This document shows positions 13,795 through 13,950 of a stretch of 40,997 bases of DNA, piece by piece (the stretch's first letter is position 1; every line of letters starts with the position of its first letter). Origin of the DNA: a virus; the UHGV virus genome UHGV-0384088. One strand, given 5' to 3'. Below the pieces are notes generated by a model. That model saw only the letters and a list, made by a program, of their open reading frames with translations. It ran no database searches and was not told the DNA's origin. Position numbers and translations under genes: made by a program.

Positions 13795-13824
13795 GCCCTC
13801 TGTTTATAAGGGTTTACGGATATG

Positions 13825-13870
13825 TTATAGGTTACTGCAATCCGGGCCACCAAATAGCAATAACCTATAA
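13825..13870. repeat. Imperfect inverted repeat TTATAGGTTACTGC-N18-GCAATAACCTATAA, candidate serine-integrase attP core
   Basis: 14-bp arms (13/14 match) in the 155-bp int-lysin intergenic region; geometry (about 46 bp, central spacer) fits serine-integrase att sites. Confidence 0.4.
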
Positions 13871-13914
13871 TATTTTTACATATTATAAATATACACGAAA
13901 ATGATGCAATATTC

Positions 13915-13950
13915 ACCCCTCAGAGAGCTGATCTCCGAGGGGGTTTTTAT
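13915..13950. terminator. Intrinsic terminator (CCCCTCAGAG...CTCCGAGGGGG + TTTTTATT) between int and the convergent endolysin gene, probably bidirectional
   Basis: GC-rich hairpin followed by T-run on plus strand; abuts endolysin stop codon on the minus strand. Confidence 0.5.

Follow-up and report, generated by a model that had tools for sequence, protein, structure and literature searches.

The 52-bp imperfect inverted repeat at positions 13822-13873 of the DNA analyzed here (a virus genome of 40,997 nt, which we refer to in full length as the window) is, with high confidence, the attP of a temperate siphovirus that infects Mediterraneibacter gnavus; the large serine recombinase of 472 amino acids encoded directly beside it integrates the circularised genome into an attB within the spore-coat gene cotJC of this host, at codons Phe29-Gly30-Gly31-Pro32-Asp33. 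The case for this attP/attB pair is built on assemblies, mostly metagenomic, and combines the ORFs and repeats of the window with phage-host junctions in lysogens, empty host sites and two natural alleles of the host sequence.

An inverted repeat between converging integrase and lysin genes

The features of the site and its two neighboring genes are as follows.

12376-13794, + strand: integrase, a 472-aa large serine recombinase (Pfam, PHROG)
13795-13949: int-lysin spacer, 155 bp, between the stop codons of converging ORFs
13822-13873: assigned attP, a 52-bp imperfect inverted repeat (repeat search and junction mapping; the 44-bp geometry is also found in the attP of relatives)
13826-13869: core palindrome of attP, 44 bp, TATAGGTTA...TAACCTATA
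13841-13855: core common to attP and attB, TCCGGGCCACCAAAT on the + strand and ATTTGGTGGCCCGGA in the cotJC sense (four-site alignment, host alleles)
13847-13848: strand-exchange dinucleotide, CC on the + strand and GG in the cotJC sense (two host-allele brackets, symmetry centre of the repeat)
13950-14924, - strand: endolysin, an N-acetylmuramoyl-L-alanine amidase of 324 aa (Pfam Amidase_2; start ATG at 14924)

The spacer separates the stop codon of int on the + strand (13794) from that of the lysin gene on the - strand (13950). These ORF ends, together with the repeat, bear out an earlier sequence-only reading of the window, in which the int and lysis genes were described as adjacent across a spacer containing an inverted repeat; the phage genes that it had placed on both sides are also present (repressor, ImmA-like protease, cargo and int on the left; lysin, holin and tail genes on the right). 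The repeat arms, TTATAGGTTACTGC-N18-GCAATAACCTATAA, are located at 13825-13838 and 13857-13870, and can be extended to 20 nt (13822-13841 and 13854-13873) with a complementarity of 17/20. When repeat quality is defined as arms of 20 nt with at least 17 matches and 6 to 24 nt between them, this is the only inverted repeat of such quality in the whole 40,997-nt window; the chance expectation is 0.035 such repeats per mononucleotide-shuffled window (one or more were found in 4 of 200 shuffles). The site displays the traits of large serine recombinase sites, namely a short imperfect dyad with a 44-bp core (52 bp when extended) around a non-palindromic central GG/CC, and the same imperfect palindrome and central dinucleotide agree with the earlier suggestion that the geometry fits an enzyme of this class.

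The integrase carries the Pfam domains Resolvase (PF00239, 6-153), Recombinase (PF07508, 176-262) and Zn_ribbon_recom (PF13408, 279-333), all above cut-offs; it is assigned to the integrase family PHROG 95 (E = 1e-103), and a catalytic-serine motif, YVRVSTDKQ, can be read from the alignment near its N-terminus. On the other side of the spacer, the start of the lysin gene (ATG 14924) follows from comparing it with the gene called in L001, and the exact 324-aa protein is on record. A lysin ORF of 334 aa with a TTG start was also considered and rejected, as it has no exact record and the 324-aa form from ATG 14924 is the true protein. The holin gene adjoins the lysin gene and lies beyond it from int.

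Lysogen junctions and the empty site in cotJC

Contigs that encode the exact integrase were found in two states, int-spacer-lysin (L001, L004) and int-cotJB/cotJA (L002, L006, L007, L008); the int-attP-lysin arrangement is common to L001, L004, L022, L024, L130 and L134. At the int-side junctions (L002, L006, L007, L008 and L025) the contigs match the window exactly up to 13848, beyond which they pass into the 5' codons of cotJC in antisense, cotJB and cotJA. Compared with the window, the integrated copies have G in place of A at 13849, retain CCAAAT in common with it and bear no relation to it from 13856 on; on its opposite strand the host flank codes for MWNYEKRLQYPVKITQTNPQIAKVIISQFGGPD, which is the N-terminus of CotJC. 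At the lysin-side junctions (L012, L014, L011, L015 and L016) identity to the window extends down to 13841 and is followed by cotJC from Asp33/Gly34 (GGELAASMRYL...). L012 and L014 read from the lysin gene through the terminator and the right repeat arm to 13841 and then into CGGGGAGCTCGCTGCATCGATGCGG..., and L012 encodes positions 40-198 of the Mn_catalase profile. The possibility that L011, L015 and L016 are free phages with other integrases was ruled out; they have the window-type junction, about 110 nt of cotJC and then a second element, and are double lysogens.

A contig scan for the deduced attB found the site uninterrupted in 27 gut-metagenome contigs, the flanks of which match those of both junctions exactly; the empty attB is also present in the M. 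gnavus genomes L136-L139 and in Bariatricus sp. L018. An intact cotJC is found in 4 of these 27 contigs, a proportion that reflects how the scan sampled; the index lists intact CotJC in over 10,000 blocks. In the cotJC sense attP reads TATAGGTTATTGCTATTTGGTGGCCCGGATTGCAGTAACCTATA and attB reads GATCATTTCACAATTTGGCGGCCCGGACGGGGAGCTCGCTGCAT, and in the four-site alignment the two give rise to two hybrids with no base gained or lost: the lysin-side hybrid consists of the left arm of attP and the right arm of attB, and the int-side hybrid consists of the left arm of attB and the right arm of attP. The search for attL and attR half-sites that had been proposed from the window thus identifies attB, since in lysogens these half-sites flank the phage within cotJC. 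The proposal that the spacer repeat is attP is likewise upheld, given that both junctions break in the middle of the repeat and that attP and attB yield exactly two hybrid sites; host-phage junctions map to the spacer repeat rather than elsewhere in the genome.

The attB corresponds to codons 29-33 of cotJC, the third gene of the cotJA-cotJB-cotJC operon. Once the phage has integrated, cotJC is broken after about 31 codons; int converges on the 5' stub, and at the other end of the prophage the lysin gene is followed by the 3' part. In the lysogen the 5' stub translates to ...FGGPDCSNL and then a stop, and the 3' part is without about 39 residues if it is started at an internal Met.

Exact protein matches identify the host as M. 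gnavus: the intact CotJC (207 aa, named 'spore coat protein JC' in the sources), CotJB and the flanking ABC-F protein match source-named Mediterraneibacter ([Ruminococcus]) gnavus proteins exactly, and members of the 90%-identity integrase cluster adjoin cotJB/cotJA in the NCBI assemblies GCA_040084835.1 and GCA_028462465.1. Bariatricus sp., the first genome match to attB, was rejected as host (the junction flanks have no megablast match in it, and identity over cotJ is 70%).

In one contig the same enzyme is associated with a different target. L003 (11385-12094) comes from a different phage, with other immunity and cargo genes, that has an identical 472-aa integrase and int-proximal attP arm; after window position 13852 it continues midway into an ABC-transporter solute-binding-protein gene (TCCGGGCCACCAGCCTGTG, as against TCCGGGCCGCCAAATTGTG in cotJC). 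This is probably a secondary attB, represented by a single contig and one junction, and either the specificity of the integrase is not absolute or L003 is an exception.

Two host alleles place strand exchange at the central GG

The host attB occurs as two alleles, GGC GGC (allele A) and GGT GGA (allele B), which written out are ...CACAATTTGGCGGCCCGGACGGGG... and ...CACAATTTGGTGGACCGGACGGGG...; the attP core at 13841-13855 has one mismatch to each of them (13849 for allele A and 13846 for allele B). Allele A attB and attP have in common the stretch ATTTGG(T/C)GGCCCGGA, and the T/C mismatch (13849) keeps to its own left arm in both allele-A hybrids, including L006 and L016, which derive from one sample. 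Because this mismatch stays with its own side in allele-A lysogens, exchange must fall to the right of sense position 21, within GGCCCGGA (13841-13848).

Other int-side junctions (L029, L031, L131-L133 and L135) form a set with T at the 13849 position, because these lysogens derive from the second host allele, B, empty sites of which (CAATTTGGTGGACCGGAC) are found in the M. gnavus genomes L137, L138 and L139. Three members of the set (L131, L132 and L135) carry three to four SNPs linked to allele B in the cotJB / cotJC 5' flank, and in the same three the GG is followed by the phage base C (13846) and not by the host A; L133 is of mixed allele. The phage base after GG in allele-B lysogens indicates that exchange falls to the left of sense position 24. 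Taken together, the allele-A and allele-B brackets place exchange at the GG, 13847-13848, which makes up the first two bases of the Gly31 codon and the exact symmetry centre of the palindrome at 13826-13869. Resolution to two bases presupposes that integrases of 97-100% identity share one cut position and that the parental attB alleles of the lysogens are those in the present empty sites.

The relatives L042, L044, L066 and L069 have an attP of the same 44-bp span with GG at its center, and L044 (attP) and L045 (junction) diverge at the base directly after the central GG. From the exchange point we expect int-side junctions of the form ...CAATTTGG(C/T)GG followed, across the point of exchange, by CCCGGATTGCAGTAACC..., and lysin-side junctions in which ...GCTATTTGGTGG is followed by (C/A)CCGGACGGGGAG....

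Free and integrated forms of the genome

The ends of the window fall within one gene, the parts of which are given below.

1-96, - strand: 5' part of a Lar-family gene, which continues at 40997-40848 (gene call in L019)
40848-40997, - strand: 3' part of the Lar-family gene (read across the joined window ends)

The independent scaffold L019 is 100% identical to the window from 3434 to 1 and then from 40997 to 40480, and the same scaffold, represented as L004, runs on through int and attP. Across the joined ends 63 aa (from the ATG at 42) match positions 1-57 of 58 of the Pfam profile Lar_restr_allev; the gene call in L019 is 81 aa long and starts at window position 96. Host sequence is absent from all 40,997 bases, and the int-attP-lysin arrangement is found again in 39-40 kb contigs assembled from other samples. 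The unrecombined attP and the contiguous ends indicate that the window is an unintegrated, circularly permuted complete genome, and the reading of it as a free form (virion, replicative or excised) is supported. The claim in the sequence-only reading that the genome is not integrated here therefore stands, with attP intact, L019 joining the window ends and the lysogen contigs showing int-cotJB/cotJA and lysin-cotJC instead. The check for circularity in assemblies that it had called for gives a bridge of 100% identity with a complete Lar gene across the ends, and what lies beyond the window ends is phage sequence, not bacterial.

The intact attP also occurs in another setting, as tandem dilysogens rebuild it between their copies and assembly cannot tell them from a circle; integrated copies are, moreover, found in the host species across many samples. 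The window may accordingly be the attP joint of tandem prophage copies, or the product of an assembly that collapsed integrated and excised forms. We regard this as unlikely, since there is no host sequence in the 40,997 bases, the ends close within one gene and the arrangement recurs in several 39-40 kb contigs of other samples; the identification of attP would be unaffected even if it were true. The status of the window as a complete, free genome matters beyond the att site, because it fixes how the rest of the window is read.

The Lar gene, of the restriction-alleviation type, lies two genes downstream of a 453-aa ORF (450-1811, - strand) whose counterpart in the identical contig L019 is a DNA_methylase gene (PF00145); a 113-aa ORF (93-434) separates the two. 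The Lar gene and the methylase are an anti-restriction pair ending the early region.

Hairpins, neighboring genes and the int-attP cassette

The remaining features of the region are the following.

9624-10073, + strand: cargo gene, DUF6978
10097-10855, + strand: cargo gene, DUF1828/DUF1829
10935-12182, + strand: cargo gene, 415-aa DUF4041 (SNIPE) and T5orf172/MUG113 nuclease-like protein
12241-12248 and 12278-12285: 8-bp perfect inverted repeat upstream of int, not an att site
12348-13901: exchangeable int-attP cassette (blastn against phiRg507T2_3, L129)
13795-13813, + strand: small hairpin, GCCCU...AGGGU then UUU, directly 3' of the int stop (MFE fold)
13916-13942: G+C-rich hairpin terminator between attP and the lysin stop, with a T run after it on the + strand

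RNA from either strand of the repeat at 13822-13873 folds into a long hairpin (-24.9 and -25.1 kcal/mol, z = -3.1 and -4.6), followed on the + strand by a U run (AUAUUUUU / AUAUUUUUAC), and the repeat sits between converging genes, all of which would suit a repeat that serves only as a terminator for int and lysin, with attP elsewhere. This explanation is very improbable, because the phage-host junctions all break at the center of the repeat and the spacer holds both a separate terminator (13916-13942) and the small hairpin directly 3' of the int stop. Integration splits the repeat hairpin, which therefore is not a terminator in the prophage; in the free form the attP repeat may double as one. 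The hairpin at 13916-13942 folds with -18.2 and -20.4 kcal/mol and is kept in the lysin-side junction contigs, so that it stays with the lysin gene in the prophage. From its fold and place, the small hairpin at 13795-13813 is probably the int terminator and would stay with int in the prophage; at the matching place after int, the hairpin of relatives is stronger (for example, AAGCCGCATAAACAGCGGCTTTG).

A weaker candidate att repeat had been pointed out upstream of int (CCGAAGAT-N29-ATCTTCGG, 12241-12285), and although it is an 8-bp perfect inverted repeat between a cargo gene and int, it can for practical purposes be dismissed as attP, because no junction maps to it, integrated copies keep it contiguous with int and cargo, and it lies within a stretch (12197-12347) that is 85-86% conserved in the tyrosine-integrase phages phiRg507T2_3 and phiRgIBDN1 (PMC10072058) and is also present in L003.

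Homology to the tyrosine-integrase phage phiRg507T2_3 ends at 12347 and restarts at 13902 (blastn). The isolated R. gnavus phages phiRg507T2_3, phiRgPS_6 and phiRgIBDN1 (PMC10072058) have the same host and the same map as the window (repressor, cargo, int, attP spacer, lysin, holin, tail), with 82-93% nucleotide identity to it in the lysin, holin and tail segments and in the stretch upstream of int. Phages isolated on M. gnavus so far have, as reported, tyrosine integrases only, and the experimentally mapped attB of phiRgPS6 is a 21-bp intergenic site (PMC10072058); the window, in contrast, carries at 12348-13901 a serine recombinase that targets cotJC.

An extended -10-like motif, TGATACAAT(ATTC), lies at the right edge of the cassette, just before the lysin-side terminator (window 13901-13913, TGATGCAATATTC). 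It recurs in several phages whose integrases are unrelated (L044, L066, L069, L101 and L129) and may act as a promoter antisense into the lysin gene or as a module-exchange joint. The three cargo genes (9624-12182, + strand) lie between the ImmA-like protease gene and int and are swapped for other genes in L003 and L130; the block looks like a variable moron or defence slot. A PHROGs search of nine early or cargo ORFs found no excisionase or directionality factor among them, and reading by eye of the region upstream of int found nothing convincing as a sigma-K-like promoter.

Integrase relatives and proposed mechanism

Among 80 IMG/VR relatives (55-99% identity), all informative integrated copies join cotJC at the G-G-P-D-G-E codons, in one of two orientations: the int-proximal arm is joined either to the 3' part of cotJC in sense (n = 30) or, as in the window type, to the 5' part in antisense (n of at least 6). 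The loci that are uninformative on att (26 of the 80) end no more than about 70 nt past the integrase match, many of them at the int stop, as clipped prophage calls. L038 and L039 were classed as integrated by a regular expression, but more likely carry an attP mimicking the QFGG codons. Close integrases (for example, those of L062 and L060) have attP sites that differ only in an inverted central segment, the near-palindromic arms being alike. In this family, then, attP copies about 15 bp of a conserved coding motif and has in the course of evolution been turned around relative to int; a flip of the center flips the prophage.

The steps of the mechanism that we propose are taken from established large serine recombinases (phiC31, Bxb1, A118/LI and SprA). 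By analogy with these, Int dimers would bind the two half-sites of attP and of attB and then synapse; all four strands would be cut with a 2-nt stagger at the GG/CC, the subunits would rotate by 180 degrees, and religation would follow. The orientation of the prophage would be set by the non-palindromic GG/CC, and excision is predicted to require a phage-encoded directionality factor. The system of the window is a standard large serine recombinase attP/attB pair and, as such, ordinary biology.

Other recombinases in cotJC

Further att sites are found in M. gnavus cotJC, belonging to unrelated large serine recombinases that are 20-26% identical to the window integrase. Site 2 (codons G62-T-E-E65) goes with a 510-aa enzyme and site 3 (codons D60-I-G-T63) with a 538-aa enzyme; these sites are seen in L011 (2288-2545), L015 (3868-4125) and L016 (977-1203), as well as in L104, L105, L109 and others, and in the double lysogens L011, L015 and L016 the gene is cut into three pieces. 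A fourth junction, at codons L-A-A-E (about aa 138-141; GCTGCAGA before the break and TGGTACGA after it), occurs in L107 (744-2315, with the junction near 2300), L108, L118 and L121, and adjoins a 523-aa serine recombinase with a DUF4368 tail according to Pfam. Recombinases with such a tail are usually on conjugative or transposon-like elements. The four target sites in cotJC coincide with the most conserved motifs of CotJC, which we assume to lie near the metal ligands of Mn catalase.

A phage with an identical lysin, found in L013 (6975-7530) and L017 (1027-1450), diverges from the window right after the terminator; there it has a 59-aa ORF and the att arm ATTAGTTGCATCTT, the inverted partner of AAGATGCAACTAAT, which is found beside the 510-aa recombinase, and this arm is joined to cotJC at T-E-E-L-A-H-M-E. 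The occurrence of the identical lysin with both att types indicates that the same lysis module travels with two int-attP cassettes targeting cotJC. In L102 and L112, site 2 is unoccupied and 1-nt indels in CTGGCC(C)ATATGG at its core frameshift cotJC; these may be sequencing errors (the assemblies are of low coverage) or real lesions.

The targeting of cotJC by multiple unrelated recombinases raises the question of a regulated switch. M. gnavus cotJC could be a landing pad for at least four elements with unrelated large serine recombinases, with the window phage excising in sporulation, like SPbeta and skin, to rebuild the gene; we put this forward tentatively and consider it doubtful. If it were true, carrying the prophage would be a way for a major gut commensal to switch the composition of its spore coat. 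The prophage phi027 of C. difficile adjoins CDR20291_1465, a CotJC-like Mn catalase gene (PMC11222575), which hints that cotJC-family genes are prophage sites in other Clostridia too.

Comparison with known systems

Among integrase relatives of solved structure, only the catalytic domain matches that of the window; the catalytic domain of TP901-1 (3bvp) is a detectable structural relative (E = 2e-6). The Listeria A118/LI integrase (comK) and that of lactococcal TP901-1 have the same domain architecture as the window integrase and, like it, an attP of about 50 bp with an imperfect dyad around a 2-bp crossover. The attB of A118 is within a protein-coding gene. The two differ from the window in that only the N-terminal domain matches by sequence and the att sequences are unrelated.

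Our search of the literature found no description of the window integrase, its att sites or cotJC-targeting M. gnavus phages, which large integrase surveys may nevertheless include; cotJC is listed among sporulation-gene targets, citing Abe et al. 2013, in a preprint (bioRxiv 10.1101/2021.11.22.469490). The present analysis provides a complete, base-resolved attP/attB pair with two natural attB alleles for a serine integrase natural to M. gnavus, a gut species linked to inflammatory bowel disease. Integrase/att pairs are raw material for single-copy chromosomal integration tools, and this pair is of practical value for M. gnavus.

The window resembles the SprA/spsM system of SPbeta in B. subtilis in having a large serine recombinase at the prophage end, att sites that are inverted repeats with a core of about 15 bp in common with attB, and an attB inside a mother-cell sporulation gene, which integration breaks in two (PMC4191935, PMC5499854). 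The two systems differ in target (spsM versus cotJC) and in host (B. subtilis versus a gut Lachnospiraceae); for SPbeta, sporulation-coupled excision and the directionality factor SprB have been demonstrated. In the intervening elements skin (sigK), vfbin (spoVFB), vrin (spoVR), gin (gerE) and yin (yabG), as in the integrated form of the window, a serine recombinase lies beside the 5' piece of the sporulation gene that is interrupted (PMC5595907, PMC10747680), and the attB is within the coding sequence. Elements of the skin class are mostly defective and excise in sporulation, whereas the window holds an entire 41-kb phage in its free form, the free and integrated forms each having been observed, in different samples. 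The window thereby adds cotJC in a gut Lachnospiraceae to the sporulation genes that are split by serine-recombinase prophages.
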